Positions 6,116 through 23,663 of a stretch of DNA of 24,000 nucleotides are shown in pieces. The stretch's first letter is position 1. Each line of letters starts with the position of its first letter. The stretch lies in NCBI GenBank assembly GCA_038317685.1, contig JBBQBQ010000005.1, positions 6,984 through 30,983 on the forward strand, written 5' to 3'. The stretch comes from Desulfuromonadales bacterium. GTDB lineage: Bacteria > Desulfobacterota > Desulfuromonadia > Desulfuromonadales > DDH964. Position numbers and translations under genes: made by a program. A model generated the notes under the pieces. The model saw only the letters and a list, made by a program, of their open reading frames with translations. It was not told the origin of the DNA and did no database searches.

Positions 6116-6200
6116 GGCTGCGGCTCCGGCAAACGCGTCTGTCCTTGTTGGTATCACACTTCCCGGGAAAAAACATCGTCAAGCAGAGCAGAACCGCAAT

Positions 6201-6233
6201 TTCCACATTTCTTCCACATTTTCTCCGCATTCG
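6201..6233. promoter_or_regulatory. Three 11-bp-phased direct repeats (TTCCACATTTC / TTCCACATTTT / CTCCGCATTCG); candidate OmpR-family (BaeR-like) operator
   Basis: Read directly. The CC of the core TCCRCAWT sits at 6203, 6214 and 6225 (11-bp period). A fourth degenerate copy accgcaatt starts at 6193. Located about 86 nt from both divergent start codons (6115 and 6317). Confidence 0.45.
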
Positions 6234-6316
6234 TCGCCTAGTCTCATCCTCAAGCACGGCCGACATGAGGTCGCCGGATCGTGACATCGAAGCCACCACC
6301 CATAAAGGAGGTCGCC

Positions 6317-6934: not shown

Positions 6935-6996
6935 CAGAGTCGACGACACCCGTAACCTTCACCGGGGCTCTGCCCCTTAGCCAAGGAGAATCAATC

Positions 6997-7485: not shown

Positions 7486-7636
7486 GCCGGCTCCGGGCGA
7501 TGGGGAGCAATGGGCTCCTCCCGAACACAACATTTAAATCCTTTTAACCTTGTTCAAAGCGATATACTGATGACCATCCGGAGCCGGCCGCCGTCGCGCG
7601 GTCGGCTCCCGGTCCTTTCTTCCAAAGGCGGAAATT

Positions 7637-9001
7637 ATGCGCAACTGTATCCTGCTGCTGATCCTCTCTATCCTCCTGGTCACCCTCGACGGGCTGGCCC
7701 GCGCCGCCGACAGTGAGGGTACGCTGCGATTGACGCTGCCGCAGGCGGTCGTTCTGGCCCTGGCCGCCAATCCCGACTTGACCCTGTCCCGCAGCCAGGA
7801 GCGGTCCGCCGTGGTGGCGGTGGAAACAGCCCGCGGCCGTTTCCTTCCCGACCTCCAGGCCAGCGGCAGCGGCCGGGAGAACTGGCAGCACCAGGCGCCG
7901 CCGGGGACCTCCGATGAATATCGTACCGTCAACCTGGGGCTCGCCTCATCGTTGAACCTTTTCAACGGCTTTGCCGACAGCGCCGGGCTCGGCAGCGCCC
8001 GTCAGCAGCTCCAGGCGGCCTCCGCCACCCTGGAACGCCAGCGGCAGACGATCGCCTTCGACACCGCCAGCCGCTTCATCGCGGTCCTCAGCGATCAGGA
8101 ACTGGTGCAGGTGGCGGAGCAGAACCTGACCAGCCAGAAGGCGCTGCAGGAACAGATCGACGCCTTCTACCGGGCCGGGGTGCGGTCGGTCACCGATCTT
8201 TATCAGCAGCAGGCGGCGACCGCCCTGGCCCAGTTCAACCTCATCAACGCCCGTCGCAATCTCCAGGTCGACCGGTTGCAGCTCCTCCAGACCCTCGGTC
8301 AGAACCCGCCGACGACGGTGGAGGTGGTGGCGCCGGGCGCCGTCGATGTTGGCGCCGCCCTGCCGAACCTCGATCTGGCGGAGCTTTACCGGCAGGCCCT
8401 CCTGGCCCGTCCCGACCTCACCGCTCAGGAGCGGCAGCTCGAGGCGTCCCGGGAAGCGATCCGCGTCGCCCGGGCCGGCTATCTGCCGACCCTCGCCCTG
8501 CAGGCCGATGCCGGTTCCAACTACAACAGCCAGAGTCACGGCAGCCTTTCCGGCCAGCTTGGCGACGACAATCTCGGCGCCAGCATCGGGGTGGCCTTGT
8601 CGGTGCCGATCTTCGACCGCGACCAGACCCGCACCAGCGTCGCCCAGGCCCGCCTCGGGGCCGACGACGCCGCGACCCGGCTGGCCAAATTGAGGCAGCA
8701 GGTCGGGGCCGAGGTCGGCCAGGCGCTGTCTGACTACCGCAGCGCCGAAGAGCAGCTGACGGCGGCGACCGAGCAGCTCAGCTACGCCCGCCAGGCCCTG
8801 GCGGCGACCGAAGCCCGCTACCGGGTCGGCGCCTCGACCTGGATCGAACTCTCCACCGCCCGTTCGACCCTGGTTCAGGCCCAAGGGGACGAAGTCCGGG
8901 CCCGCTACGCCGTCCTGCTGCAGGGCTTGAACCTCGGCTATGCCGCTGGCGACCTCGATCCCCTGCTGAACCGCCTGAACCCCCAGGAGCACTCCTCATG
9001 A
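7637..9001 (+). CDS. TolC-family outer membrane efflux protein; first gene of the MacAB-type operon
   Basis: ATG at 7637. Signal peptide MRNCILLLILSILLVTLDGLARA. OMF repeats (LTLPQAVVLALAANPDL, AGVRSVTDLYQQQAATA, YRVGASTWIELSTARSTLVQAQ). Stop overlaps the next start (ATGA at 8998-9001). Confidence 0.85.
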   Translation: MRNCILLLILSILLVTLDGLARAADSEGTLRLTLPQAVVLALAANPDLTLSRSQERSAVVAVETARGRFLPDLQASGSGRENWQHQAPPGTSDEYRTVNLGLASSLNLFNGFADSAGLGSARQQLQAASATLERQRQTIAFDTASRFIAVLSDQELVQVAEQNLTSQKALQEQIDAFYRAGVRSVTDLYQQQAATALAQFNLINARRNLQVDRLQLLQTLGQNPPTTVEVVAPGAVDVGAALPNLDLAELYRQALLARPDLTAQERQLEASREAIRVARAGYLPTLALQADAGSNYNSQSHGSLSGQLGDDNLGASIGVALSVPIFDRDQTRTSVAQARLGADDAATRLAKLRQQVGAEVGQALSDYRSAEEQLTAATEQLSYARQALAATEARYRVGASTWIELSTARSTLVQAQGDEVRARYAVLLQGLNLGYAAGDLDPLLNRLNPQEHSS

Positions 9002-10212
9002 CCCGCACCGCCCGTCTTTTGCTGCGCAGTTCCATCGTCCTGATCGTCCTGGCGGTCGTCATCGCCGGTCTTTACCTGTGGCGCGGCGCCGGTTCGGCGA
9101 AGTCCGCCGCCGCCCCCTATCTGACCGCACCGGTTGTCCGCGGCACCTTGGAGCGCACCGTCTCTTCCACCGGCACCCTTGCCGCCGTGGAAACGGTGAC
9201 GGTCGGCACCGAGGTCTCGGGGACGGTGGCGAAGGTCCTGGTCGACTTCAATAGCAAGGTGACGAAGGGGGAAATTATGGCGGTCCTCAAGCCCGACCTC
9301 TTCAACGCCGCCGTCGCCGATGCGGGAGGGACGGTGACCCAGACCGAGGCGGGCCTCGCCCAGGCCGAGGCCGACCTGGAACGCAACCGCCCGCTCTTTG
9401 ACCAGGGTTACCTTGCCGCGCAGGAATTCCTCCCCTACCAGACCGCCCGCGACAAGGCCCGGGCGGGCCTCGTTTCGGCCCGGGCCGGACTGGCCCGGGC
9501 CCGCACCAACCTGGGGAATGCGACGATCCGCTCGCCGATCGCCGGCACCGTTATCCAGCGCAGCATCGATGCCGGGCAGACGGTGGCGGCCAGTCTCAAC
9601 ACCCCGACCCTCTTCATCATCGCCAAGGACCTGGCGCGGATGCAGATCGAGGCGGCCGTCGACGAGACCGACATCGGCCAGATCCAGCCCGGCCAGCCGG
9701 TCCGTTTCAGCGTCCAGAGTTACCCGGAGAGGACCTTTACCGGCAGCGTTCGCCAGGTGCGGCTGCAGCCGACGACGGTGCAGAACGTCGTCACCTATAC
9801 TGTCATTGTCGAGGCGGCCAACGACGACAAGGTCCTCCTTCCCGGCATGACCGCCACCGTTGACTTCGTCGTCGAACGGGTCGAGGGAGCGTTCCTCGTC
9901 CCCAACGCCGCCCTGCGCTTCAAGCCGACCCGTCCCGGCGGCGAGACGGCCGCGCCCGACGCAGAGGTTACCGGAGACGCGGCGACCGGCAAGGGGCGCC
10001 CCCGAGGCCCCCGGCTCTTCACGGTCACCGCGGAAGGGCGCCTGGAGCCCCACCAGGTCACGGCCGGCAGCAGCAACGGCCAGCAGACCGTCGTTACCGG
10101 TGACGATCTCAAGGAAGGGCTGTCCGTCGTCACCGGGGTGAACGCTGCGGGGTCCAAGCCGAAGGCGAGCTTCTCCCTCTTCGGCGCCATGCGCGGCAGG
10201 CCGTCACGATGA
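8998..10212 (+). CDS. macA: Efflux membrane-fusion protein (HlyD/MacA family)
   Basis: N-terminal TM anchor, then YLTAPVVRGTLERTVSSTGTLAAVETVTVGTEVSGTVAKVLVDFNSKVTKGE (lipoyl/beta-barrel signature), a coiled-coil hairpin, and RSPIAGTVIQRSIDAGQTV. ATGA overlaps at both ends. Confidence 0.85.
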   Translation: MTRTARLLLRSSIVLIVLAVVIAGLYLWRGAGSAKSAAAPYLTAPVVRGTLERTVSSTGTLAAVETVTVGTEVSGTVAKVLVDFNSKVTKGEIMAVLKPDLFNAAVADAGGTVTQTEAGLAQAEADLERNRPLFDQGYLAAQEFLPYQTARDKARAGLVSARAGLARARTNLGNATIRSPIAGTVIQRSIDAGQTVAASLNTPTLFIIAKDLARMQIEAAVDETDIGQIQPGQPVRFSVQSYPERTFTGSVRQVRLQPTTVQNVVTYTVIVEAANDDKVLLPGMTATVDFVVERVEGAFLVPNAALRFKPTRPGGETAAPDAEVTGDAATGKGRPRGPRLFTVTAEGRLEPHQVTAGSSNGQQTVVTGDDLKEGLSVVTGVNAAGSKPKASFSLFGAMRGRPSR

Positions 10213-10958
10213 ACGCCGAAACCCTCCTCGTTCGCGACGTGACCAAGGTCTTCAACCTCGGGGATGTCCAGGTCCACGCCCTGCGCGGGGTCTCCCTCAG
10301 CGTCCGCCAGGGGGAGTTCGTCGCCGTCATGGGGAGTTCCGGGAGCGGCAAATCGACCCTGATGAACATCCTCGGCTGCCTCGATCTGCCGACCTCCGGC
10401 GACTATCACCTCGACGGCGTCGCCGTCGGCAGTCTCAGCCGCAACCGTCTTGCTGACCTGCGCAACGAAAAGATCGGCTTCGTTTTTCAGGGCTTCAACC
10501 TCCTGGCGCGGACCACCGCCCTGGAGAACGTCGAACTGCCGCTCCTCTACGATCGCCGTCACCGGGTCGCCCGGCCCCATGAAGCGGCCGTCGAGGCGCT
10601 CACCCGGGTCGGTCTCGGCGAGCGCCTCCACCACCATCCCAACCAGCTCTCCGGCGGCCAGCAGCAGCGGGTCGCCATCGCCCGCGCCCTCGTCAACCAG
10701 CCGGCCATCGTCCTTGCCGACGAGCCGACCGGCAACCTCGACAGCCGTACCACCCTGGAGGTCCTCGCCCTCTTCCAGCAGCTCAATCGGGAGGGGTTGA
10801 CCCTGATCCTCGTCACCCACGAAGCCGAGGTCGCCCGCTACGCCTCGCGCCGCGTCGAACTGCGTGACGGCCGGGTGCTGCGCGACGAGCCGGTGACGGC
10901 ACCGCGGGACGCCGTCGCCGACCTTGCTGTCCAGCCGGCATTGGAGGAGGAATCATGA
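10209..10958 (+). CDS. ABC transporter ATP-binding protein (MacB/LolD-type ATPase, encoded separately)
   Basis: Walker [11 protein letters not shown]-loop FVFQGFNLL, signature [15 protein letters not shown], Walker [14 protein letters not shown]-loop LVTHE. Confidence 0.95.
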
Positions 10959-12172
10959 AGTGGCGCAAGCTCCTCAAGGTCGCCCTGCAGAGTATTGCCC
11001 GCAACAAGATGCGCAGCCTGCTGACCATGCTCGGCATCATCATCGGCGTCGGCTCGGTCATCAGCCTCGTCGCCCTCGGCGAAGGGTCGCAGAAGGATAT
11101 CGAGGGGCAGGTCGCCTCCCTCGGGACCAACCTCCTGATGATCCAGGCCGGCAGCAGCCACATCGGCGGTGTCCAGGGGGGGGCCGGGACCCTCGAAGCC
11201 CTGACCATGGCCGATGTCGCCCTGCTGCAGAAGGATGCCCCGCTCCTCCAGGGGGTCTCGCCGGAGATCCGCGTGCAGAGCCAGGTCGTCGCCGCCGACC
11301 ACAACTGGAACACCACCATCTTCGGCGTTTTCCCCGACTACCTGATGATCCGCAACTTTCCCCTTGCCTCCGGGGCTGTCTTCGGTGAACGGGACCTGGC
11401 GACCCGCGCCAAGGTCGCCCTCCTCGGGAAAACCGTCGCCGACCAGCTCTTTCCCGGGGAGGACCCGGTCGGGGCGCGCATCCGCATCCGCAACGTCCCC
11501 TTCCTGGTCGTCGGGATCCTCGCCTCCAAGGGCCCCTCGGCGATGGGGAGCGACCAGGACGACGTCATCCTCGCCCCGGCCACCACCGTCCTTTATCGCC
11601 TCGGCGACGGCAAGACGGTCCGCTCCATCGTCGCCAGCGCCGTCTCCGGCGAGCAGATGGCGGGCGCCAAGGCCGAAATCACGGCGGTCCTGCGGGAGGC
11701 CCATCGCCTTGCTCCCGACGCCGTCGACGACTTCCACCTGCGCGACCAGACCGAGATCAACCAGATGGCGACCCGCGTCACCGGCACCCTGACCCTCCTG
11801 TTGACCGCCATCGCCGGGGTCTCCCTGGTCGTCGGCGGCATCGGCATCATGAACATCATGCTGGTCTCGGTCACCGAGCGCACCCGCGAGATCGGCCTGC
11901 GTCTCTCCATCGGCGCCCGCCCCCGCGACATCCTCTCCCAGTTCCTTCTGGAGGCGGCGACCTTAAGCCTCTTCGGCGGCATCCTCGGTATCGTCGGCGG
12001 CCTTGGCGGCGCCTTTCTCGGCGGCCGCCTGCTCGGCATCAGCGTCGTCGTCAACCCCGGGGTGATCGTCGTCGCCGTCCTCGTCACCGGTGCCATCGGC
12101 ATCTTCTTCGGCTTCTACCCGGCCCGCAAGGCTGCCAACCTCAACCCCATCGACGCGCTGCGCTACGAGTGA
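10955..12172 (+). CDS. ABC transporter permease (MacB periplasmic domain plus FtsX 4-TM module)
   Basis: [42 protein letters not shown], a large periplasmic loop, and a C-terminal FtsX-like region (GGIGIMNIMLVSVTERTREIGLRLSIGARPRDIL ... FFGFYPARKAANLNPIDALRYE). Confidence 0.95.
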   Translation: MKWRKLLKVALQSIARNKMRSLLTMLGIIIGVGSVISLVALGEGSQKDIEGQVASLGTNLLMIQAGSSHIGGVQGGAGTLEALTMADVALLQKDAPLLQGVSPEIRVQSQVVAADHNWNTTIFGVFPDYLMIRNFPLASGAVFGERDLATRAKVALLGKTVADQLFPGEDPVGARIRIRNVPFLVVGILASKGPSAMGSDQDDVILAPATTVLYRLGDGKTVRSIVASAVSGEQMAGAKAEITAVLREAHRLAPDAVDDFHLRDQTEINQMATRVTGTLTLLLTAIAGVSLVVGGIGIMNIMLVSVTERTREIGLRLSIGARPRDILSQFLLEAATLSLFGGILGIVGGLGGAFLGGRLLGISVVVNPGVIVVAVLVTGAIGIFFGFYPARKAANLNPIDALRYE

Positions 12173-12520: not shown

Positions 12521-13339
12521 TCAATGGTTCAGCGGGACTCCGCCGGCGGCGACAAGGAGTGGTGCCGCGGCGGCGGAGGTGGCGAATTCCACGAATTCTT
12601 TGGCGTTCCCGGACAGGCCGCTCTCCTTGAAAATAAGCGCCAGGGTGTTGACACTCGGGTAACCGGCCAGGGTCGGCAGGCGTCCATCAATGGCGAGCAT
12701 CTTCACCCTGGAGTTTTTCGCGACGTCATGAGGACCGAAACCGATGCCCGCCGGGTGGTCCTCGACGGCTGCAATCATCTCTTGGGTCTTGGTGGCGAGG
12801 AGTGCCTTGCTGGTCAGGCCGAGGTCCTTGAAACCGGGGAAACTGTTGCGCAGGACCTCCAGGGAGCTGTCGCCGTCCTCTCTGCGAGTGACGCTGATCG
12901 GCAGATCCTTGCCACCGACTTCCTTCCAATTGGTGACCTTTCCGGAGTAGATGGCACACACCTGCTCAGAGCTGAGCCCCTGGATATCGGCGATGGGATT
13001 GACGAAGAAGACGACCGGCACCAGGGCGAAGGGACGATAACTGAGACCATAGGCCCGCTCTTTTTCCTTGATGGGACGAGCGACCCGGCCGAGGATGGCC
13101 GCTCCTTCGCCGACAGCCTTGATTCCCCCGCTGGAGCCGATGCTGTCGGGAATTTGGATGCTCGCGTCGGGGTGGATTTTTTCGAAGCTGAACTTCAAGG
13201 CTTTGAGGATCATGACCCCGTCGCCGGTGCCGACAATGGATATTTCTTCGGCCATGGCAGGGGTGCCGACGAAGGACAGGACCAGGACCAGGGCCAAGGC
13301 TCGACTCAACCTCGCGATAAACCGAAAGCTGTCTTTCAT
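12521..13339 (-). CDS. Orphan periplasmic substrate-binding protein, PstS/PBP_like_2 family (phosphate-binding-like)
   Basis: ATG at 13339 with GAGGAG 6 nt upstream; the track start at 13342 is a TTG. Signal peptide ending PAMAEE. ISIVGTGDGVMILKAL...IGSSGGIKAV...PFALVPVVFFVNP is typical of PstS-like PBPs. No pstCAB genes are adjacent. Confidence 0.7.
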   Translation of the reverse strand: MKDSFRFIARLSRALALVLVLSFVGTPAMAEEISIVGTGDGVMILKALKFSFEKIHPDASIQIPDSIGSSGGIKAVGEGAAILGRVARPIKEKERAYGLSYRPFALVPVVFFVNPIADIQGLSSEQVCAIYSGKVTNWKEVGGKDLPISVTRREDGDSSLEVLRNSFPGFKDLGLTSKALLATKTQEMIAAVEDHPAGIGFGPHDVAKNSRVKMLAIDGRLPTLAGYPSVNTLALIFKESGLSGNAKEFVEFATSAAAAPLLVAAGGVPLNH

Positions 13340-13490
13340 CAAGATCTCCTCGAATAAATGTTAGGGGCCTCTGCAATAATTGGAGGCATCTTATACTGAA
13401 ATGGGGTAGTTTTCTAGAATAAGTTCTAATGCGGCGGATTATTCTGCCAACAATGGTTTCGTGACGGGGGCCGCCAGGGGTATCGTGCCG

Positions 13491-14126: not shown

Positions 14127-15076
14127 ATCGTCATCGGCTCGCCGGAATTCCCGGGGGGGGACGGGACGTGACAACTCTTCCCGGGGAACCCCTGAGGATG
14201 GCCCTGGCCGGGCTCCTTGTCGAGTACCGGAACCGGCGCATCCTTGCCCCGTCCTTTGAGGCAAAAGGGATGGAGCGGCACGCCGGGGCGCTCGCCGAGC
14301 AGTGGAATGCCCGCTTTCCCGGCTTCCCGACCGAACATTTTCCCTACACCTCGCTCCGGGGGGAGTTTCATCGCAAGCAGCGGGACGCCCACCTGAAGGA
14401 CATTATCGTCCGCTTGCTGGCGGACTGCGATGGTCCACCGCCCATCGTCAACCCCGCCTGTGTCTTCGGCGCACATGCCTGCGACCTGGCCCGGCGCTTG
14501 CCGCACCGGCAGGTGATCGGGACGGACATTGACCCGCGGTGGCATGCGCTGTACCGGATTCGTAAACTGGGGCATCTCCCCCGGAACTTCAGCTTCCGGC
14601 AGGACAATATTTTTTCCCCGCAACTGGATGTCACGCCGATCGCCGTCGTTTTCTTTGGTGCCTGCGGTTCTGTCACGGACGGAGCCCTGGACTATGCCAT
14701 CGCCGCGGGGGCCCGATTTGTCATGTGCCGCACCTGCTGCCACGACAATATCGGCGGCAACCTGGCCGTCACCTCGCGTCCCAGCCTGGTCAGCCACTTC
14801 TTCCGGGCCAAAAACCGGGTCTACAACCGCCTGAAAAAGGCGCCGAAATACTCCGGCTATTACTTCTCACAAAAGTACGCTGACAACGCCTATCCCCGGA
14901 GCGTCGCCGGCAGGCGGTCAAGCACTCCGGACGAATTCCTGGCGGTGGCCCGGGACTCGGCGGAGAGCGACATCTGCCGGGCCATCATCGACCTGGACCG
15001 GTGTCTCTACCTCGTCGAGCATGGTTTTCTTGTCGAGTATCAGGGCGAGTTGCTGGTGGCGGAACGGGAAGTGTGA
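14123..15076 (+). CDS. Hypothetical protein, class I SAM-methyltransferase-like (Methyltransf_32-like layout); start uncertain
   Basis: The ATG at 14123 forms an ATGA overlap with the GST-fragment stop. Alternative starts are 14198 and 14270 (GAGG 8 nt upstream). Rossmann-like strand-loop PACVFGAHACDLARRL...VIGTDIDP, then FRQDNIF, VVFFGACGSVTDGALDYA and FVMCRTCCHDNIG resemble the HACGdL...pCCyhk pattern of PF13679, from memory. Confidence 0.5.
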   Translation: MNRHRLAGIPGGGRDVTTLPGEPLRMALAGLLVEYRNRRILAPSFEAKGMERHAGALAEQWNARFPGFPTEHFPYTSLRGEFHRKQRDAHLKDIIVRLLADCDGPPPIVNPACVFGAHACDLARRLPHRQVIGTDIDPRWHALYRIRKLGHLPRNFSFRQDNIFSPQLDVTPIAVVFFGACGSVTDGALDYAIAAGARFVMCRTCCHDNIGGNLAVTSRPSLVSHFFRAKNRVYNRLKKAPKYSGYYFSQKYADNAYPRSVAGRRSSTPDEFLAVARDSAESDICRAIIDLDRCLYLVEHGFLVEYQGELLVAEREV

Positions 15077-15245
15077 AAGGGCTATTGGGGGGGGCAGGCA
15101 GGCGAGGCTCCCCCATGCCGACGGTGGGAGGCGGACCGGCGTCAGACGTGGGGTGCAGAGGCCAAATGGGGCGGGCTGCTTTTTCGCAAAAGCAGCCCGC
15201 CGCCGTATGCGTGGTCGGAAAGTGACGATGCCGCTGCGAGTTCCC

Positions 15246-15884
15246 TCAGTTTCCGGTGCCGCCGTGGAGGGTGATGGAGTGGAGCAGGGCGGCCATCTCC
15301 CGGGCATCGACCGGATCTTTGAGGGTGTCGGTGAAGTAGAGGAAGAACCAGTAGGGATGGGCATAGCCGATCAGCCCGGAAAAGGCTTTCGGCGTCCCAT
15401 TCTGTTGGTAGGTCGCATCCAGTTGGTAGACCTTCCTCGCGCCGGCGATGTCCGCGGTGGTAAAGTGGATCTGTGCCCCGGTGACCCCCGGTTCGCCCTG
15501 CAGAATCTCGCCGGCCATTTTGGCCGAAGCCTCGAGGTCCTCATCGCCGGGAGGCTTCTGGCCGGGTGTGGGGGGGCTGAAATCGATGAGCAGGTAGGAG
15601 CCGGTGGCGGGTGCGTAAATAAACCCCTGGTTCTGGGCCAGGCGCTTCATGGCCATGGCGGTCACTTCGGCGCGGGACAGGCTCTTGCCCTGATCCTGAA
15701 GGTCGTGCTCGACGTCGGCGATCATCGGCGCCACCAGCATCTCGGGAGGGGTTCGGCTGAAACTCCAGCGGGCGCTGGGGAGCTGAAAATCGATGGAAAA
15801 CTGGGGATCGATCGACAGCGTTTCGGCGCCGGCGACCCACGGGCAGGCGAATAGCAGCGCCAGCAGCAGGCTGATGATACGCAT
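15246..15884 (-). CDS. Secreted hypothetical protein; source of the 139-bp repeat
   Basis: AAGGAG 7 nt upstream of the ATG at 15884. Signal peptide MRIISLLLALLFACPWVAGA. No family recognised. Confidence 0.7.
   Translation of the reverse strand: MRIISLLLALLFACPWVAGAETLSIDPQFSIDFQLPSARWSFSRTPPEMLVAPMIADVEHDLQDQGKSLSRAEVTAMAMKRLAQNQGFIYAPATGSYLLIDFSPPTPGQKPPGDEDLEASAKMAGEILQGEPGVTGAQIHFTTADIAGARKVYQLDATYQQNGTPKAFSGLIGYAHPYWFFLYFTDTLKDPVDAREMAALLHSITLHGGTGN
15476..15613 (-). repeat. Copy 2 of the ~139-bp direct repeat, in frame inside the 15246-15884 CDS
   Basis: About 97% identical to 13491-13629, in the same orientation. Confidence 0.9.
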
Positions 15885-16887: not shown

Positions 16888-17253
16888 TCATCCCCCCGCC
16901 AGCTTGACCTTCCAGCCACGTTTCGCCAACTCCGCCAGCAACAGGTCCCGATGATCCCCCTGGATCTCGATGACCCCGTCCCGCACCGTGCCGCCGCTGC
17001 CGCAGCGTTTCTTGAGCTCCCCCGCGAGAGTCTTGAGACCCGCGGAATCGAGAGGGACGCCCCGGATGATCGACACTCCGGCTCCCTTGCGGCCCTTGGT
17101 CTCCCTCCCGATCCGCACGATGCCGTCGCCCGGCGGCGGCGCCGCCGGCTTGCGGCACAGGCACTGAGCCGCCGGGCGTTCGCAGACCGGGCAGATTCGC
17201 CCCTGGCCGCTGGTGTAGACGAGGCCGCCGCTACGGTTGGCTCCGCCCTTCAT
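16888..17253 (-). CDS. yciH: SUI1/eIF1-family translation initiation inhibitor YciH
   Basis: LVYTSGQGRICPVCERPAAQCLC...GIVRIGRETKGRKGAGVSIIRGVPL...LKKRCGSGGTVRDGVIEIQGDHRDLLLAELAKRGWKVK is a characteristic YciH sequence. ATGA overlap with the upstream GGDEF gene. Confidence 0.9.
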   Translation of the reverse strand: MKGGANRSGGLVYTSGQGRICPVCERPAAQCLCRKPAAPPPGDGIVRIGRETKGRKGAGVSIIRGVPLDSAGLKTLAGELKKRCGSGGTVRDGVIEIQGDHRDLLLAELAKRGWKVKLAGG

Positions 17254-18212
17254 TGCTGCTTATTCCGGGATTCCACGGGTGGCGGGGAGGGTAGGTTGGT
17301 CGCTGTTTCGAGGCGGTTGCGACCGTTGGTCTTGGCGCGGTAGAGAGCGTCGTCGGTTTCCCGGATCAAGTCTTCGATGGTGACGATGGTGGAGTTGGGG
17401 CAGACCGCAGCGCCGATGCTGACGGTCAGCTGCAGTCCTGCGAGGGGGCCGTCGAAGGACTGTTCGCTGGCGGCGTGACGGATGCGCTCGCCGACCTTGA
17501 CGGCTTCGTGAAGGGGGGTCTCGGGGAGGACCAGAGCGAATTCCTCACCGCCGAAGCGGGACGCCAGGTCGTATTGGCGCAGGTGGTGGCGGAGGAGTTG
17601 GGCGAGGGTGACCAGCACTCGATCTCCCTGCTGGTGGCCGAAGCTGTCATTGACCTTCTTGAAGTGATCGATGTCGACCATGAGCAGGGCGAGGGGCGCG
17701 ACGTGGCGTTGGCTGCGGCGGAATTCCCGGTCGAGGGTCGCCATCAGGGTGCGGCGGTTGGCAAGGCCGGTGAGGGGATCGGTGGCGGCCAGTTCGAGGA
17801 GCATCAGGTTGCTTTCGCGCAGGCTGTCCTGGAGGGTCTTGATCTTCAGCTGCACCTTGACCCGGGCCAGCAGTTCCCCGGGATCGAAGGGCTTGGTCAC
17901 ATAGTCGCTGGCCCCCTGGCCGAGGACCCGGACCTTGGCCTCCTGGTCGCCCTGGCCGGTGAGCATGATCACCGGGATGTTCTCCAGTTCCGGGCGGGTG
18001 GCGAGCAGCTGCAGGAACTTGAAGCCGTCCATCCCCGGCATCTCCAGGTCGCAGAGGATGACGTCGGCCGGCCGGTCGAGGAGAGCCCTGAAGCCCTCCA
18101 GGCCGTCCCCCGCTTCACGGTATTCCCGAAACAGGTTGGTCCGCTCCAGTATCTTGAGGATCTGCTGGCGGGCGACTTTGGAGTCGTCAATGATCAAAAT
18201 GGAATGTTTCAT
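17250..18212 (-). CDS. Response regulator with GGDEF output domain (REC-GGDEF diguanylate cyclase)
   Basis: REC domain: ILIIDDS and the phospho-acceptor context VILCDLEMPGMDG. GGDEF domain: DPLTGLANRR, intact GGEEF, and an RxxD I-site (RQYD) five residues upstream of GGEEF. Confidence 0.9.
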   Translation of the reverse strand: MKHSILIIDDSKVARQQILKILERTNLFREYREAGDGLEGFRALLDRPADVILCDLEMPGMDGFKFLQLLATRPELENIPVIMLTGQGDQEAKVRVLGQGASDYVTKPFDPGELLARVKVQLKIKTLQDSLRESNLMLLELAATDPLTGLANRRTLMATLDREFRRSQRHVAPLALLMVDIDHFKKVNDSFGHQQGDRVLVTLAQLLRHHLRQYDLASRFGGEEFALVLPETPLHEAVKVGERIRHAASEQSFDGPLAGLQLTVSIGAAVCPNSTIVTIEDLIRETDDALYRAKTNGRNRLETATNLPSPPPVESRNKQQ

Positions 18213-18353
18213 AAGAAAGCCCCGTGTTTCCCGAATTTTCTGTCAAGGCGGCCTGCTTGTAAAGGGAAAAGGTGAGCCTCGCTGCGGCGACAAACCCGAC
18301 TGGCCGGGATATACTGAACACAACGAGAGGGGTTCAGCTGAAAGGAGGCAGTC

Positions 18354-18545
18354 ATGTCGTTGGGGAAAACCTGGTATACCCCCGAGGGAGCCGAAGCCAA
18401 GTTTGGGGTGAGCAAGGAGCAGGTTCTGCGCTGGGTCGAGGAGGGATTGGTGCGGTCGGAACGGGAAGGGGACAAAGTGGTCCTGGTCAATGGCGACGAC
18501 TTGGGAATCAAGGTCGAGTCGCTGGTCAGTGACGCCCAGGGTTGA
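18354..18545 (+). CDS. Small helix-turn-helix DNA-binding protein (MerR/excisionase-type HTH_17-like)
   Basis: AAAGGAGG at 18340-18347 and ATG at 18354. YTPEGAEAKFGVSKEQVLRWVEEGLVRSEREGDKVVLVNGDDL fits the HTH_17 pattern. Confidence 0.65.
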   Translation: MSLGKTWYTPEGAEAKFGVSKEQVLRWVEEGLVRSEREGDKVVLVNGDDLGIKVESLVSDAQG

Positions 18546-18549
18546 GAGG

Positions 18550-19770
18550 ATGGCAGCCGTCGAAGGGACCTTTGACCTGGCGATCATCGGCGGCGGCATC
18601 GTCGGCTGCGCCACCGCCTTGGCGCTGCTGGAGCAGCGGCCGGGGCTGAGCCTCGTGGTGCTGGAGAAGGAGGGTTCTCTGGCGGCTCACCAGACCGGCC
18701 ATAACAGCGGGGTGATCCATTCCGGCCTCTATTACCAGCCGGGCTCCCTCAAGGCCCGTAATTGCGTGGCGGGGCGGGATGCCCTTTACGGGTTCTGCGC
18801 AAGCCACGACATTCCCGTAGAGCGTTGCGGCAAGGTGGTGGTGGCGACCGATGGCGGGGAGTTGCCCTTTCTCGCCGAACTGGAACGCCGGGGACGCGCC
18901 AACGGCCTGGAGGGGCTGGAGCGCCTGGATGGCCCGGGTCTGCGGCGCTATGAGCCGCAGGTGGCGGGGATTGCCGGCCTCCACGTGCCCCAGACCGGAA
19001 TCGTCGATTATGTGGCCGTCACCGAAGCCATGGCGCGGCAGGTGCGGGCCTTGGGCGGAACGGTGCGCACCGACGCCAGGGTCGAGCGGATCGCCCGGCG
19101 CGACGGCGACTTTCACCTTGCAACCCCCGGTGGGACGACCCTCAGCCGCTGTCTGATCAATTGCGCCGGACTGCAAAGCGACCGGGTGGCGAAGCTCGCC
19201 GGGGTGAGTCCGGGGGTCCGCATTATCCCGTTTCGCGGCGAATATTTCGTGCTGCAGCCGGCGCGACGGCACCTGGTCCGCAATCTGATCTATCCGGTCC
19301 CGGACCCGGCCTTCCCGTTTTTGGGGGTCCACTTTACGCGGATGATCGACGGCGCCGTCGAGGCAGGACCCAACGCTGTCCTGGCCCTCCATCGCGAAGG
19401 GTACGGGCCTTATGCCCTGTCGTTGCGGGATTGCTGGGAGACCTTCAGCTATGGGGGGTTCTGGCATCTGGCGGGACGCTACTGGCGGATGGGGTGGCGA
19501 GAGGTGCGACGCTCGTTCAGCAAGGGGCTGATGGTGCGCGATCTGCAGCGGCTCCTGCCGAGCTTGACAGCCGCCGACATCTCCCGCGGCGGGGCCGGGG
19601 TCCGGGCGCAGGCGGTCGACGGGGACGGCCGGCTGCTCGACGATTTCCGCATCGTCACCGGAGAGGGGATGATTCACGTTCTCAACGCCCCCTCTCCGGC
19701 GGCGACGGCGTCGCTCAGCATCGGCCGCAGCATCGCCGAAGAGGCGGGAGCGCATTTCGGCCTGGGGTGA
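18550..19770 (+). CDS. lhgO: L-2-hydroxyglutarate oxidase (FAD-dependent)
   Basis: FDLAIIGGGIVGCATA dinucleotide-binding motif. LEKEGSLAAHQTGHNSGVIHSGLYYQPGSLKA and IPFRGEYFVLQ are typical of LhgO/YgaF. The start at 18550 removes an Arg/Ser-rich leader from the track ORF. Confidence 0.85.
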   Translation: MAAVEGTFDLAIIGGGIVGCATALALLEQRPGLSLVVLEKEGSLAAHQTGHNSGVIHSGLYYQPGSLKARNCVAGRDALYGFCASHDIPVERCGKVVVATDGGELPFLAELERRGRANGLEGLERLDGPGLRRYEPQVAGIAGLHVPQTGIVDYVAVTEAMARQVRALGGTVRTDARVERIARRDGDFHLATPGGTTLSRCLINCAGLQSDRVAKLAGVSPGVRIIPFRGEYFVLQPARRHLVRNLIYPVPDPAFPFLGVHFTRMIDGAVEAGPNAVLALHREGYGPYALSLRDCWETFSYGGFWHLAGRYWRMGWREVRRSFSKGLMVRDLQRLLPSLTAADISRGGAGVRAQAVDGDGRLLDDFRIVTGEGMIHVLNAPSPAATASLSIGRSIAEEAGAHFGLG

Positions 19771-19791
19771 GGAGCACCCCGGGCGGTGGGT

Positions 19792-20256
19792 TCAGGGGAT
19801 TCCCGCCAGGGCGCCGAAGAGGAAAGGCTGGCTGGCGATGGTGATATCCCCCAGCAGTTCGAGTAGCGGAACCGTCAGGGCCGGCAAAGGGAACGTGCCG
19901 AACTGGATGCCGCGGACACAGCGGCGACCATGGGCCAGGGTCGGATAGGCCTTGCAGATGTCCGGTTTAAGGTCGTGGATCGCGCACCCTGAACTTTGCG
20001 GACCGGTTGGCTGTAGGAAGGGGCAGATTTCGATCCGCGCCTTGGTCTGGGGATCGACCCAGATCCAGCCGAGCCGGTTGACCCGCTGCACCAGATCGTC
20101 CCGCCCCATCTCCCGCCAGCGTTTCAGGTCGGACGCTGATGCATGCAGGTGGCCGCCAAAGAGCTGGCAGCACTGGCCGCAGGCCCGGCATCCTTTGGGA
20201 CGCCTTTCTTGTCGATTTCCCCCGAGATTCAACCAATCCAACAACCGGTCAACCAT
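19792..20256 (-). CDS. YkgJ-family cysteine-cluster protein (CxxCxxCC, putative Zn/Fe-chelating)
   Basis: AGGGAGG upstream of the ATG at 20256. CRACGQCCQLFG, CPFLQP and CAIHDLKPDICKAYP match the PF03692 pattern. Hydrophobic C-terminal tail. Confidence 0.8.
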   Translation of the reverse strand: MVDRLLDWLNLGGNRQERRPKGCRACGQCCQLFGGHLHASASDLKRWREMGRDDLVQRVNRLGWIWVDPQTKARIEICPFLQPTGPQSSGCAIHDLKPDICKAYPTLAHGRRCVRGIQFGTFPLPALTVPLLELLGDITIASQPFLFGALAGIP

Positions 20257-20313
20257 GGCCACCTCCCTTTCGGCGGGTTGCTGACCCGCCGCCTCGGTCC
20301 GGGGCCGGCTCCG

Positions 20314-20360
20314 CACGCAAAACCGCCGCCCGGCTGCTGCCGACACGGCGGTTTTGCGTG
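20314..20360 (-). other. 15-bp perfect inverted repeat (stem-loop) between hgcB and the YkgJ-like gene; terminator or leader structure
   Basis: cacgcaaaaccgccg (20314-20328) is the exact reverse complement of cggcggttttgcgtg (20346-20360). The 17-nt loop contains a further cggc/gccg pairing. No U-tract follows on the minus strand. Confidence 0.5.
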
Positions 20361-20427
20361 GGAACCTGAAATTTTCGACCTCAGCATTTGCTCCTCCCCG
20401 GTCAGGAGCCGTTAATCATGCACTATT

Positions 20428-20457
20428 TTGATAGCGCGTTGCCGGGAGGGTTGTCAA
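20428..20457 (-). promoter_or_regulatory. Candidate sigma70-type promoter for the YkgJ-like gene (TTGACA-18-TATCAA)
   Basis: On the minus strand, TTGACA is the complement of 20452-20457 and TATCAA the complement of 20428-20433. About 165 nt upstream of the start codon. Confidence 0.4.
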
Positions 20458-20500
20458 CCCAAAACCGGGGAATTCTCGGATTAATTGAATGGGGCCAAGG

Positions 20501-20794
20501 TCAACAACTCGATCCGCCGCAGTCGCAGCTCGGTTCCTCCCCGGTGAGCCAGCCGTGGATGATGGCGCTGGCGCAGCCGACCCCGGCCTTGACCGTAAGC
20601 GCCGTGACCGGGCAGTTGCGGGCGCAGGCGCCGCATTCCATGCAGCGGTCCCGGACGACGATGGCCGCCTTCTTCGCGGCCAGGGCGAAGACCCCGTGGG
20701 GGCAGACTTCGAGGCAACGGCCGCAGCCGATACAGGCCGGTTGATCCAGTTCCAGGGTCGTCACCCCGGAGAGATAGAGCAATCCCGTCGTCAT
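20501..20794 (-). CDS. hgcB: HgcB, 2x[4Fe-4S] ferredoxin of the mercury methylation pair
   Basis: CIGCGRCLEVCP and CMECGACARNCP (the C(M/I)ECGA signature), conserved GVGCA cysteine, and Cys-rich tail SCDCGGSSC. The ATG at 20794 is preferred because GGAGGA lies 7 nt upstream inside the hgcA 3' end; the track start at 20812 would overlap hgcA by 14 nt. Confidence 0.9.
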   Translation of the reverse strand: MTTGLLYLSGVTTLELDQPACIGCGRCLEVCPHGVFALAAKKAAIVVRDRCMECGACARNCPVTALTVKAGVGCASAIIHGWLTGEEPSCDCGGSSC

Positions 20795-20798
20795 TGTT

Positions 20799-21971
20799 TC
20801 ATCCTCCGACAAAGCCTCCGAACACCCAGGCCACCGCGGCGATCAGCAAGGCTCCTCCCTGGAAGGGGATGGCCCGGCGCATCTCTTTCTCCACCCCCGA
20901 CGGGGAGGTGTAGGTGGTCGATCCGGTAAAGTTCATGGCGCACCAGGAAGCGACCGCCGGCAGGGCCAGCAGGAGGGCGGCGCCGTTCCAGAAACCGAGC
21001 GTCCCCCGGGCCAGCAGGAGGCCGACGACGGCCAGCATGGCCCCGAGTTCCGCCCCCTTGACGGCAAAGGCGCGCCCCGGTAGCCAGGGGAGGAGGATCG
21101 GTGTCAGGACCGCTCCGGCCACTACCCCGGTCAGGCCGACGGCAATCGCCAGTCCTCCCCGCAGGAGGGCCGCCGCCGGGTGAAAGAATTGGGGGCCAAG
21201 GGCGCCGATGGCGAGGAGGCCGAGGCAGCTCCAGCCGATCTGTCGGGCCATGCCGGTCAACTCCACCGGGGTCAGGACCAGTCTCTCCCCCAGGGTGAAG
21301 GTCACCCGCCGCATCGCCGGTGTCGCCTTCATGCCGGCGGCCAGAAAGACCGCCACATCGGCGGCCCGCACCGGGCCGTAGATCACCCGGAAGCCAGTCT
21401 GACGTTCCACCAGGTGAGCGGCGACCCCGGGGGCGCCGAGTTGGGGGAGGACCAGGACCCGGTGGCTGACGACCCGCTCCAGAGCGGTCCCCCGGACCTG
21501 ACGGACCACCTCTGTGGTGCCGAAGGTCCCCTTGCCGGCGGCGCACCAGACGTTGATCCCCTCCGTCTCCAGGACCAGGATCCATAGATGCAGTCCGGCC
21601 AGTCGGCAGCGGAGGGCATCGAAGGAGAGCTTGTAGTTGGCGGTGACGAGGACCGGCGAGCCGTCATGAGGGGTGCCGACGGCGTAGAGGCCGGGGGGGA
21701 TGCGGTAGCGCCTTCGCCCCAACCCCCAGCGCATCTGCCAGCGGCCGAAGCTATCCCGCACGGCCAGGCGGGTGGCGACCTGGGGGACCGTCCCGGCCGG
21801 GGTCTCCAGCCAGTCGCTGACGAAGGGCCAGACCCGCAGACCGGGACGTTCACCGGTCAGCGCAGCGGGAAGGCAGGCGGGGCGGGGGGGACAGCAGGCA
21901 CCGGCCGGCTCCGACCCGGAGAGGCCGGTCTCCGCGGGAAGTCGGTCAGTCTCCGTCAGCACTTCAGGCAC
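20799..21971 (-). CDS. hgcA: HgcA, corrinoid protein of the mercury methylation pair (N-terminal corrinoid-binding domain plus C-terminal TM domain)
   Basis: Cap-helix signature NVWCAAGK is encoded at 21531-21554 (checked codon by codon). Flanking CFeSP-like sequence VLVTANYKLSFDALR...GTFGT, then several hydrophobic helices. The annotated start is a GTG with a poor Shine-Dalgarno, so the 5' boundary is uncertain (see findings). Confidence 0.9.
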   Translation of the reverse strand: MPEVLTETDRLPAETGLSGSEPAGACCPPRPACLPAALTGERPGLRVWPFVSDWLETPAGTVPQVATRLAVRDSFGRWQMRWGLGRRRYRIPPGLYAVGTPHDGSPVLVTANYKLSFDALRCRLAGLHLWILVLETEGINVWCAAGKGTFGTTEVVRQVRGTALERVVSHRVLVLPQLGAPGVAAHLVERQTGFRVIYGPVRAADVAVFLAAGMKATPAMRRVTFTLGERLVLTPVELTGMARQIGWSCLGLLAIGALGPQFFHPAAALLRGGLAIAVGLTGVVAGAVLTPILLPWLPGRAFAVKGAELGAMLAVVGLLLARGTLGFWNGAALLLALPAVASWCAMNFTGSTTYTSPSGVEKEMRRAIPFQGGALLIAAVAWVFGGFVGG

Positions 21972-21995
21972 CGCACCCGGCGGCGCTTTCGGTGG

Positions 21996-22073
21996 TCAAC
22001 ACCCCGTATCGGCCGCTGGTTCCGGTACACCGGATGGGGGGGCGGGCGAGAATTCCGGTTCGATGTCGTTCAT
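21996..22073 (-). other. 25-codon ORF in the hgcA frame (MNDIEPEFSPAPPSGVPEPAADTGC-TGA); leader peptide or Sec read-through extension
   Basis: ATG is the complement of 22071-22073, with GGAG (22083-22086) 9 nt upstream. TGA at 21996-21998 lies 8 codons before the GTG at 21971, in the same frame (102 nt apart). Confidence 0.3.
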
Positions 22074-22090
22074 CGGGTCAGTCTCCGTGT

Positions 22091-23155
22091 TCAAAGGAGC
22101 CGGCCGCCGGTTTTTTTGAGTTCGGCGTGGGCGTGGCGCAGCATCCGTTCGGTGGTGGCCCAGTCGACGCATTTGTCGGTGATCGATACCCCGTATTTGA
22201 GGTCGGCCAGATGCTGCTGGATCGGTTGGTTGCCGGCTTCGAGGTTGCTCTCGATCATCACCGATGAGATCGAACGATTGCCGGCGCTGAGCTGTTGCAG
22301 CACGTTGCCCAGAACCTCTTCCTGGCGCTCATGATTCTTGTAGGAATTGGCGTGGCTGCAGTCGACCATGATGGCATTGTTGAGCCCGGCCTTGGCGAGG
22401 AGGTCCTCGGTGCGGCGAATGTCTTCGGGGAAGTAGTTGGGGCTGTCGTTGCCGCCGCGCAGGACGATGTGGACGTCGAGGTTGCCGGTCGTCTGGACGA
22501 TGGCATTGAGGCCTTCGTTGTTGATGCCGAGGAAGTTGTGGGGGTGGCGGGCGGCGCCCATGGCGTCGATGGCGATCTGCAGGTTGCCGTCGGTGCCGTT
22601 CTTGAAGCCGACCGGAAAGGAGAGGCCGCTGGCCATCTCCCGATGGGTCTGGGATTCGGTGGTGCGGGCGCCGATGGCCCCCCAGCTGACCAGATCGGCG
22701 AGAAACTGCGGGGTGATCGGGTCGAGCATTTCGCCGGCGACCGGCAGGCCGAGGTCGGTGATGGCGCAGAGCAGGCCGCGGGCCACGCCGAGCCCTTTGG
22801 AGATCTGATGGCTGCCGTTCAGGTCCGGGTCGTTGATCAGGCCTTTCCAGCCGATGGTGGTCCGCGGTTTTTCGAAATAGACGCGCATCACCAGCAGCAG
22901 CTGATCCTGCAACTCCTGGCCGAGGGCGGTGAGGCGCCGGGCATAGTCGAGGGCGGCGCGGGGGTCGTGAATCGAGCAGGGCCCAACCACGACCATCAGT
23001 CGCCGGTCCCGCCGGTGCAGGATGTCGACCACCGCCTGGCGGGCGTTGTAGACGTTCTCGGCACCGGATTCAGAGAGGGGGAAGACCTGTTTCAGGTCGG
23101 CGGGGGCGATGACCGGAGTGAGCCCCCGGATCCGTAGATTGTTGGTCCGTTTCAT
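22091..23155 (-). CDS. 3-deoxy-7-phosphoheptulonate (DAHP) synthase, class I (AroF/G/H type)
   Basis: RLMVVVGPCSIHD, VMRVYFEKPRTTIGWKGLINDP, WGAIGARTTESQTHREMASGLS.PVGFKNGTDG and MVDCSHANS are hallmark class I DAHPS blocks. Confidence 0.95.
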   Translation of the reverse strand: MKRTNNLRIRGLTPVIAPADLKQVFPLSESGAENVYNARQAVVDILHRRDRRLMVVVGPCSIHDPRAALDYARRLTALGQELQDQLLLVMRVYFEKPRTTIGWKGLINDPDLNGSHQISKGLGVARGLLCAITDLGLPVAGEMLDPITPQFLADLVSWGAIGARTTESQTHREMASGLSFPVGFKNGTDGNLQIAIDAMGAARHPHNFLGINNEGLNAIVQTTGNLDVHIVLRGGNDSPNYFPEDIRRTEDLLAKAGLNNAIMVDCSHANSYKNHERQEEVLGNVLQQLSAGNRSISSVMIESNLEAGNQPIQQHLADLKYGVSITDKCVDWATTERMLRHAHAELKKTGGRLL

Positions 23156-23227
23156 CGATCGATCCTCGTTTCGCGTGATGTGGGGACAACCGCCGCCGAG
23201 TGCGGGCGGCAGCTTCCTCCGGCCGGT

Positions 23228-23256
23228 ACTCTAGCGGTTTTCCCGGGGAAAGTCAA
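23228..23256 (-). promoter_or_regulatory. Candidate sigma70 promoter for the DAHP synthase gene (TTGACT-17-TAGAGT)
   Basis: On the minus strand, TTGACT is the complement of 23251-23256 and TAGAGT the complement of 23228-23233, with a 17-nt spacer. About 70 nt upstream of the ATG at 23155. Confidence 0.5.
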
Positions 23257-23290
23257 AACCCCCGACACCTCTCTGGGATCGGGAAAGGGT

Positions 23291-23320
23291 TTGACACTGC
23301 GCCGGTCGATCAGCTATAAA
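23291..23320 (+). promoter_or_regulatory. Candidate sigma70 promoter for yggT-divIVA (TTGACA-18-TATAAA)
   Basis: TTGACA at 23291-23296 and TATAAA at 23315-23320. About 55 nt upstream of the ATG at 23376. Confidence 0.55.
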
Positions 23321-23375
23321 CTTAGCTTCAATGCGGCCTTGGGGCTCTTCCTCACGGCGCGTGAACGAGGTAGCC

Positions 23376-23663
23376 ATGAATATCCTGCTTGGAACCCTGG
23401 CCGAGGTCATCGACCTCGTGATCCAGATTTACACCTATATCGTCATTGCCCGCGCCATCGTCTCCTGGGTCAACCCCGATCCTTACAATCCCATCGTCCG
23501 TTTCCTGTACCAGGCGACCGAACCGGTCCTGGTCCGCATCCGCCGGATGATCCCTTCCGTCTTCGGCGGTTTCGACCTTTCCCCGATCATCCTTTTGGTT
23601 GGTCTCACCCTGCTGCGTCGACTGCTCCTCGCCCTGCTGCAGCAAGCCGCCTTCCATCTGTAA
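23376..23663 (+). CDS. yggT: YggT-family membrane protein
   Basis: GAGG 5 nt upstream of the ATG at 23376. IYTYIVIARAIVSWVNPDPYNPIVRFLYQATEPVLVRIRRMIP.....DLSPIILLVGL is the classic YggT repeat sequence. Confidence 0.85.
   Translation: MNILLGTLAEVIDLVIQIYTYIVIARAIVSWVNPDPYNPIVRFLYQATEPVLVRIRRMIPSVFGGFDLSPIILLVGLTLLRRLLLALLQQAAFHL

Follow-up and report, generated by a model that had tools for sequence, protein, structure and literature searches.

The window analysed here, a 24,000-nucleotide stretch of contig JBBQBQ010000005.1 from a Desulfuromonadales bacterium, carries the mercury-methylation gene pair hgcA–hgcB, encoding a corrinoid protein (HgcA) and a ferredoxin (HgcB). The explanation that best fits the locus as a whole, and in all likelihood the right one, is a functional-looking hgcA–hgcB operon of a Desulfuromonas-type bacterium, in which HgcA is probably extended at its N terminus by a segment containing selenocysteine (Sec, U). 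The gene for HgcA very probably begins at an ATG at position 22073 of the minus strand, 102 bases upstream of the annotated GTG start at 21971, and reads as Sec an in-frame UGA that lies within the resulting extension of 34 codons. The elements of this extended gene and of its annotated form are the following.

20799–22073, minus strand: proposed full coding region of hgcA, 424 codons plus stop, with the UGA read as Sec (U26)
20799–21971, minus strand: hgcA as annotated, a 390-residue open reading frame (ORF) with a GTG start, from the ORF list
22082–22086, minus strand: Shine–Dalgarno-like GGAGA, 8 nt ahead of ATG 22073
22071–22073, minus strand: proposed true hgcA start ATG, 17 nt after the aroG stop codon (22093–22091)
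21996–22001, minus strand: TGT-TGA, the proposed Cys25-Sec26 (CU) pair, in frame with hgcA, the UGA being 21998–21996
21968–21986, minus strand: hairpin resembling a selenocysteine insertion sequence (SECIS), GCGCCGC-CGGGU-GCGGUGC, with a 7-bp stem, a 5-nt loop and a free energy of −11.5 kcal/mol
21891–21896, minus strand: second vicinal pair, Cys-Cys in ACCPPRP, residues 26–27 of the 390-residue ORF and 60–61 of extended HgcA

Read through from ATG 22073, HgcA begins MNDIEPEFSPAPPSGVPEPAADTGC-U-PPKAPPGAVPEVLTE... and comprises 424 residues, its tail holding C25-U26, C60-C61 (in ACCPPRP) and C67. No Shine–Dalgarno sequence comparable to the GGAGA of this ATG precedes the annotated GTG (21971–21969). 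The same read-through was applied to 100 related loci collected in genome and metagenome scans, and then to two cultured relatives, a Desulfuromonas carbonis-type genome (L101) and L103. The peptide C-U-PPKAPPGA, which spans the UGA, is unchanged in nine of these loci (L001, L044, L049, L050, L052, L055, L095, L101 and L103), is altered at one or two positions in L046 and L014, and is reduced to a looser C-U-P(P) in L012, L027 (Fundidesulfovibrio agrisoli) and L034, giving 14 related loci in total. The codon preceding the UGA encodes cysteine in every relative with the CU motif, and one homologue (L010) reads CCPPKAPP, a cysteine counterpart of the Sec site. All CU relatives with a long enough contig have an ATG ahead of the UGA, the closest being approximately 12–24 codons away; L044, where the contig end falls short, was left out of this count. 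Two further loci, L031 and L077, carry the PCUGP (CUGP) form of the motif described by Haft (bioRxiv 10.1101/2022.07.06.499078).

Public gene calls stop short of this segment. The calls for the window HgcA and HgcB are exactly the 390-residue and 97-residue forms, and the HgcA calls of the cultured relatives (RefSeq WP_231875342.1 for L101 and GenBank ALC17221.1 for L103) are both 376 residues long and start at a GTG just past the hairpin, omitting an in-frame M...C-U-PPKAPPGA segment at 2923–3003 and 2935–3003, respectively. Public HgcA sequences of this clade, including the RefSeq entry of D. carbonis, thus appear to be truncated at the N terminus. The sequence-only reading of the window had likewise taken GTG 21971 as the gene start: the 390-residue ORF that it described is present, but as the whole gene it is probably wrong, its upstream end being bounded by the in-frame TGT-TGA, and the likely ATG 22073 and the probable Sec-containing extension were missed.

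The hairpin begins 12 nt after the UGA, which is separated from the loop by 16 nt, and its 3′ arm contains the annotated GTG start (21971–21969). The criteria for bacterial SECIS elements (bSECIS) given in PMC13188914 are a loop of 3–9 nt, a stem of 4–16 bp and G at the first two loop positions, together with a spacing of 16–37 nt and a minimum free energy of at most −7.5 kcal/mol; the window hairpin conforms to the four bSECIS criteria quoted there. When the criteria were scripted, a qualifying hairpin was found at 15 of 16 candidate sites, with a spacing of 16–19 nt and five different stem sequences, whereas of 600 control positions drawn at random and in frame from these genes only 19% qualified, and 6% at comparable stability. 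Three fourfold-degenerate codons of the stem are invariant, with G at the third position in 12 of 12 sequences; among comparable columns elsewhere in hgcA (n = 68), 7% are invariant and G occupies 31% of the positions. The glycine codon in the loop varies freely. This invariance at synonymous sites of the stem points to a constraint on the hairpin at the level of RNA.

Several observations weigh against read-through. The GC content at third codon positions (GC3) is 0.61 in the 34 upstream codons, compared with 0.85 in the remainder of hgcA, which is neutral to slightly negative for a short segment rich in proline and alanine. The genes selA, selB and selD and a tRNA-Sec were not found in a search limited to the 24-kb window, which contains no tRNA of any kind. 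The window reads GCUPP where Haft reported an invariant PCUGP. In the CUPP clade the stem hardly varies, with 97% of cells paired and only one pair changed on both sides, and a formal test for covariation gives no significant result, 226 of 500 shuffles reaching the observed score; the peptide APPGA, itself conserved, is encoded by the stem as well, so that RNA and protein constraints are confounded. Because the covariation test is uninformative on a near-invariant stem, reliance was placed on the synonymous sites and on the control-calibrated bSECIS test. Recombinant HgcA of the model methylator ND132, made from the old start and without the extension, methylates mercury in lysates (PMC11588087), so the N-terminal tail is not essential for catalysis.

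These points bear on an alternative in which HgcA is the 390-residue protein starting at GTG 21971, UGA 21998 is a true stop, either ending a short upstream ORF (MNDIEPEF...TGC) or lying in a non-coding spacer, and the conservation on its two sides reflects a regulatory RNA or leader instead of an extension of the protein. It would agree with the public gene call, which is identical to this protein, with the RefSeq HgcA of D. carbonis, which also begins just past the hairpin, and with the low GC3, the sel genes missing from the window and the non-significant covariation. It is difficult to reconcile with an amino-acid motif that 14 relatives keep in frame before and after the UGA, with a preceding codon that is always cysteine and with the homologue in which cysteine replaces the UGA. 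It would also require initiation at a GTG that lacks a Shine–Dalgarno sequence and is buried in the hairpin, although ATG 22073 is preceded by GGAGA, and the same phenomenon has been documented for 20 other HgcA proteins (bioRxiv 10.1101/2022.07.06.499078). Termination at this UGA is accordingly considered unlikely, and decoding as Sec probable.

According to Haft (bioRxiv 10.1101/2022.07.06.499078), most HgcA proteins are selenoproteins whose annotated start is preceded by an N-terminal extension containing a CU dipeptide, and a 2026 review (PMC13188914) lists the HgcA selenoprotein under NF040863 with the motif CU. The window shares with these proteins an N-terminal extension concealed by an in-frame UGA right after a cysteine codon, and a start set past the UGA by gene callers. 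The sequence after the UGA is also similar, reading CUGPKTPAV in GSU1440 and CUPPKAPPGAV in the window, with C-U and the following P-K-x-P in common. The differences are that the pentapeptide PCUGP, described as ‘perfectly conserved’, is GCUPP in the window, which therefore falls outside that pattern; that the extended length of 424 residues is beyond the reported range of 363–400; and that a second motif, CC(PP), follows 34 residues downstream of CU. The supplementary alignment of the same study contains 24 CUGP sequences and no CUPP. The CUPP form is a variant of the described HgcA selenoprotein feature that is absent from the published alignment.

Apart from the extension, the two genes have the following layout.

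21306–21824, minus strand: corrinoid-binding domain, approximately residues 50–222 of the 390-residue ORF, from Pfam CdhD and matches to corrinoid iron–sulfur proteins (CFeSP)
21531–21554, minus strand: cap-helix motif NVWCAAGK, with the cobalt-ligating cysteine C143 (390-residue numbering), equivalent to C93 of ND132
20808–21293, minus strand: transmembrane domain of five long helices (residues 227–256, 265–296, 302–320, 327–349 and 359–388), from hydropathy and the AlphaFold model
20802–20807, minus strand: Shine–Dalgarno sequence GGAGGA for hgcB, within the final hgcA codons
20501–20794, minus strand: hgcB in its ATG form, a 97-residue ferredoxin with two [4Fe-4S] clusters, from the ORF list, NCBIfam NF040864 and Pfam Fer4

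The hgcA stop codon (TGA, 20801–20799) and the hgcB start codon (ATG, 20794–20792) are separated by a 4-nt gap (AACA). HgcB contains two CX2CX2CX3CP motifs, CIGCGRCLEVCP and CMECGACARNCP, followed by GVGC74A; its cluster cysteines are C21, C24, C27 and C61, and C51, C54, C57 and C31, and C74 is equivalent to C73 of ND132. The tail of HgcB has cysteines at positions 90, 92 and 97, the last being terminal, and no vicinal pair. The features on which the sequence-only reading had based its identification of the pair, namely the 390-residue ORF, NVWCAAGK at 21531–21554, the 4-nt gap, GGAGGA and the ferredoxin motifs, are all present, and its description of a corrinoid domain followed by a multi-helix hydrophobic C terminus agrees with a fold that matches ND132 HgcAB and CFeSP and with the five predicted C-terminal helices.

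The pair is almost certainly a genuine orthologue of hgcAB. Scoring with hidden Markov models (HMMs), which the sequence-only reading had proposed as a check, was performed with the curated models of NCBI and placed both proteins above the cut-off: HgcA scored 435 bits against NF040863 (HgcA_corrinoid; cut-off 275, E = 1.6e-130) and HgcB 131.4 bits against NF040864 (HgcB_ferredoxin; cut-off 99, E = 8e-39). Passing both equivalog models, while failing those for the fused HgcAB-like proteins and CFeSP, bears out the identity assigned from the sequence. Against the fusion model HgcAB_like (NF043039) the scores were 183.6 bits for HgcA and 57.3 bits for HgcB, both below its cut-off of 285, and HgcA reached 64.2 bits with the CFeSP gamma-subunit model, far under the cut-off of 306. 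All columns that are invariant across 42 aligned homologues (more than 100 columns, including N140 to G148) are retained in the window HgcA, and C26 and P29 (390-residue numbering) are at least 90% conserved among these homologues. The cap-helix motif occurs in 39 of 42 genome loci, and 36 of these 42 loci share the arrangement in which a separate, unfused hgcB lies directly downstream.

The AlphaFold model of HgcA, built on the alignment of 42 homologues, has a mean predicted local distance difference test (pLDDT) score of 83.9 and consists of a disordered segment (residues 1–45), an α/β domain and five C-terminal helices of 19–32 residues. These helices have pLDDT values mostly above 90, and the hydropathy profile concurs. 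The top Foldseek match in the PDB was 9a0b_A (E = 3e-24, 51% identity over 322 columns), which is a deposited integrative model of ND132 HgcAB. The next matches were the CFeSP corrinoid domains 2ycl_A, 4djd_C and 2h9a_A, with E values of approximately 2e-6 to 3e-6 over approximately 128 residues and root-mean-square deviations of 3.1–3.5 Å. A PDB sequence search with HgcA matched, among experimental structures, CFeSP large subunits only (E approximately 2e-8), and found no experimentally determined structure of HgcA.

That the pair might instead be a paralogue without methylating activity, be it a CFeSP-type corrinoid protein from the Wood–Ljungdahl pathway or a relative of the HgcAB-like fusions, is suggested by Pfam, which recognizes generic domains only (CdhD in HgcA and Fer4 families in HgcB), and by the PDB sequence search, in which CFeSP provides the sole experimentally determined structures. 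The CFeSP large subunit (AcsC/CdhE; 4djd_C, 2h9a_A and 2ycl_A) shares the Rossmann-like corrinoid fold over approximately 125 residues at 21–25% identity, but it has no membrane domain and a different partner, and where the cap-helix cysteine is present in the window the aligned CFeSP reads SVLTAYADGK. The HgcAB-like fusions (NF043039) have homologous corrinoid, membrane and ferredoxin modules, whereas in the window a stop codon, the 4-nt gap and a separate Shine–Dalgarno sequence divide hgcA and hgcB into two genes. The HMM scores, the gene architecture and the fold, including the predicted five-helix membrane domain and the 51% identity to the ND132 model, effectively exclude both the CFeSP and the fused-paralogue readings, and a paralogous origin of the window pair is barely credible.

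As orthologues, the window genes resemble those of ND132 (Pseudodesulfovibrio mercurii, DND132_1056/1057) and Geobacter sulfurreducens PCA (GSU1440/1441) in their two-gene arrangement, the NVWCAAGK cap helix, the five-helix membrane domain, and a ferredoxin with two CX2CX2CX3CP motifs, the Cys73 equivalent and tail cysteines. They differ in the N-terminal tail of HgcA, which is longer in the window and carries CU plus CC; in the gene upstream, which is aroG, no regulator gene being directly upstream; and in the tail of HgcB, which ends ...PSCDCGGSSC, with CxC and a single terminal cysteine, where ND132 has the vicinal pair Cys94-Cys95. The roles of the cap-helix cysteine C93 (PMC7305189, PMC11588087) and the requirement for Cys73 of HgcB (PMC7305189) are known from mutagenesis of ND132 cited in these studies. 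Either one of the two tail cysteines of ND132 HgcB suffices (PMC7305189), and a tail with a single terminal cysteine is therefore compatible with activity. The tail ...PSCDCGG(S)SC with one terminal cysteine is the norm of the clade, the same tail being found in approximately 20 related loci.

By analogy with ND132, HgcA would be a membrane-anchored corrinoid protein in which C143 of the cap helix ligates cobalt, and HgcB, with its two clusters, would reduce the corrinoid to Co(I). The corrinoid would next be methylated, the likely donor being S-adenosylmethionine, which serves in ND132 rather than methyl-tetrahydrofolate (PMC11588087), and the Cys-ligated methyl-corrinoid would pass the methyl group to Hg(II), giving methylmercury. 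C74 of HgcB (Cys73 in ND132) and the tail cysteines C90, C92 and C97 would shuttle Hg(II) and CH3Hg+ (PMC7305189). In the window, translation would start at ATG 22073 and the UGA at 21998–21996 would be decoded as Sec, aided by the downstream hairpin, yielding a 424-residue HgcA with a predicted disordered N-terminal tail that carries Cys-Sec (C25-U26) and Cys-Cys (C60-C61). Such a flexible tail of soft-ligand pairs could capture or hand over Hg(II) or methylmercury, much as the paired cysteines of MerA or those at the C terminus of HgcB do. A role of the tail in mercury handling, drawn from these analogies, is conceivable but has somewhat less than even chances. The broader proposal, that Desulfuromonas-type HgcA proteins are selenoproteins with tandem pairs, the Cys-Sec of CUPPKAPPGA and a Cys-Cys approximately 34 residues on, that the tail relays Hg(II) or methylmercury, and that full-length HgcA is selenium-dependent, is more tentative still.

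Many Geobacteraceae-type HgcA proteins (for example, P0024, L003, L009 and L043) have a disordered N terminus with 4–6 tandem CCPP repeats (for example, CCPPKPKPDGCCPPPKAEAPCCPPKPVTAPCCPP). The NCBIfam HgcA model, which begins at residue 62 of the window ORF, does not cover these repeats. The CUPP and CCPP motifs of the window resemble a two-repeat version of such tails, with Sec in the first repeat. Multiple N-terminal CCPP repeats are also present in an orphan hgcA found in three loci of Desulfuromonadales-type metagenome-assembled genomes (MAGs), L006 (2415–3100), L007 (7116–7800) and L008 (7176–7900), where aroG–hgcA is followed by a DnaJ/CbpA-like gene and neither hgcB nor a ferredoxin motif occurs anywhere in the locus.

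The gene content predicts, with good probability, that the host methylates mercury to a measurable extent. A genuine hgcAB pair could nevertheless reside in a host that is a poor methylmercury producer in nature, limited by low expression, by mercury uptake or by the supply of corrinoid or selenium. HgcAB accounts for approximately 0.0004% of total protein even in model methylators (PMC11588087), which leaves room for such a limitation. The interval between aroG and hgcA yielded no promoter-like site, and should HgcA require Sec, the amount of full-length protein made would vary with selenium. Against this, carriage of hgcAB has so far predicted methylation well in the isolates that were assayed, Geobacter and relatives of Desulfuromonas among them, and the tight aroG–hgcA–hgcB order suggests co-transcription with a housekeeping gene; poor production is thus held to be improbable, and measurable methylation by the host is the expected outcome.

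A second Sec residue could be placed at the end of HgcB, where the terminal cysteine and the TGA at 20501–20503 would form a Cys-Sec pair in place of the usual Cys-Cys. HgcB proteins that end in a single cysteine use TGA as the stop codon in 24 of 25 loci, compared with 16 of 28 for tails ending in CC; in the same loci, TGA ends 63% of long ORFs and 9 of 23 copies of hgcA. The loci sampled lack phylogenetic independence, however, and no second stop codon lies nearby, the read-through tails being 3 to 450 codons long and unconserved. In L101 the read-through would run antisense through the convergent gene lhgO, and a consistent SECIS-like hairpin was not seen. Sec at the HgcB C terminus of the Desulfuromonas-type clade was rejected on account of the unconserved tails and their course, which can run antisense into lhgO, and is regarded as very improbable for the window.

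Separate from this clade, Desulfomonilia-type HgcB tails in L024 (approximately 3600–3625) and L029 (approximately 7365–7390), and also in L073 and L075, have a candidate continuation past the TGA; those of the L024 and L029 type read ...GGSCSC-TGA-CGNWL-TAA and ...GGSCSC-TGA-CVYCL-TAG. In L024 and L029 the extensions are both five codons long, with a cysteine right after the TGA, a synonymous change in the leucine codon and different final stops. Judged from these codons, the extension looks translated and may be a selenocysteine tail of the form CSC-U-C. The Sec residue that Haft reported in HgcB, at residue 73, is at a different site from this candidate tail.

The proteins nearest to the window HgcA are 70–74% identical and include HgcA of Desulfuromonas carbonis / sp. 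DDH964 (WP_231875342.1; P0007), and most genome matches are MAGs of Desulfuromonadales or Geobacteraceae. The hidden CU-PPKAPPGA extension and the hairpin are shared with D. carbonis / sp. DDH964 and with the uncultured L001, L049, L050 and L052. The gene directly upstream of hgcA is a conserved neighbour.

22091–23155, minus strand: aroG-type 3-deoxy-D-arabino-heptulosonate 7-phosphate (DAHP) synthase, directly upstream of hgcA and on the same strand

The wider neighbourhood, at 22091–23663 and 17250–19770 in the window, comprises a divergent yggT, aroG–hgcA–hgcB on one strand, a convergent lhgO (L-2-hydroxyglutarate oxidase) and a REC-GGDEF regulator, and this synteny is seen in 12 genome loci (for example, L001, L005, L012, L014 and L018) as well as in L101 and L103. 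Across the window and its relatives, aroG is separated from the proposed hgcA ATG by only 17 to approximately 65 nt, which suggests that hgcA is probably co-transcribed with aroG, a gene of aromatic amino-acid biosynthesis. We know of no functional link between an aroG-type DAHP synthase and hgcAB. No ArsR-type regulator lies next to hgcA, its pair being flanked by aroG and a gene for a CxxCxxCC-domain protein. Scanned against Rfam at gathering thresholds, the entire window matched no family, and thus no cobalamin riboswitch or known RNA near hgcAB. A promoter and terminator scan of 19700–23400 gave nothing useful for hgcAB, returning one weak terminator-like site inside hgcA and one promoter-like site upstream of aroG. 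The GC content is 0.70–0.72 across hgcA and approximately 0.60–0.69 in its flanks. A horizontal-transfer island was considered and set aside: despite the higher GC content of hgcA, the neighbourhood is conserved across many relatives, which argues for vertical inheritance within the clade and does not support recent acquisition.

Between hgcB and the convergent lhgO, the window contains a gene for a 154-residue CxxCxxCC-domain protein (19792–20256, minus strand) of the Pfam PF03692 YkgJ type, without an NCBIfam match. A homologue is absent from the 100 related hgcAB loci of the genome and metagenome scans, and the gene calls of L101–L103 show no such gene between hgcB and lhgO, so that it looks like a lineage-specific insertion beside hgcAB. 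This extra gene, together with a long hairpin between hgcB and lhgO, distinguishes the window from D. carbonis and from L001, L049, L050 and L052. The 245 nt that separate hgcB from the CxxCxxCC gene fold much better than shuffled versions do (z = −5.4), the fold being dominated by a near-perfect hairpin of approximately 27 bp at 20307–20366 (minus strand), with arms at 20314–20328 and 20346–20360 that each occur once in the window. Upstream of the hairpin are a promoter-like pair, TTGACA-N18-TATCAA (20428–20457, minus strand), and a 52-codon ORF (20229–20387) with a strong GGAGGAG Shine–Dalgarno sequence. The hairpin, which has no Rfam family match, may be the terminator of hgcAB or a leader or attenuator of the downstream gene.

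The left half of the window (1–12172, plus strand) consists mostly of envelope and efflux genes, including the tail of a resistance–nodulation–division (RND) pump, two outer-membrane efflux proteins, a Big_2 protein, an outer-membrane β-barrel protein, an LTXXQ/heavy-metal-resistance periplasmic protein (6931–7485) and a MacA/MacB-type ATP-binding cassette (ABC) exporter set (8998–12172). Four large ORFs, at 3954–4829, 4694–6241, 12524–13357 and 15021–15854, have no family match.

To our knowledge, hgcAB is the only genetic marker for microbial methylmercury formation, and Desulfuromonadales are already known to carry it. The judgement of the sequence-only reading that the system is known, not novel, is right for hgcAB as such, and the locus flags an uncultured Desulfuromonas-like host as a likely producer of a neurotoxin, which is useful for environmental surveys and unsurprising for the lineage. 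What is new is a family member 70–74% identical to its nearest relatives, an unlisted C-U-P-P-K-A-P-P-G-A variant of the Sec motif, and evidence that the public gene calls of this clade are truncated. If the tail is real and functional, expression constructs and HMM surveys based on the short form would miss a mercury-handling part of the enzyme, the PCUGP motif published as ‘invariant’ would have to be widened to C-U-[GP]-P, and the availability of selenium could modulate methylation. An antagonism between selenium and mercury in sediments has long been known; if the tail indeed relays mercury, it would provide a molecular link to this antagonism, and the methylmercury output of these bacteria would perhaps be selenium-dependent.

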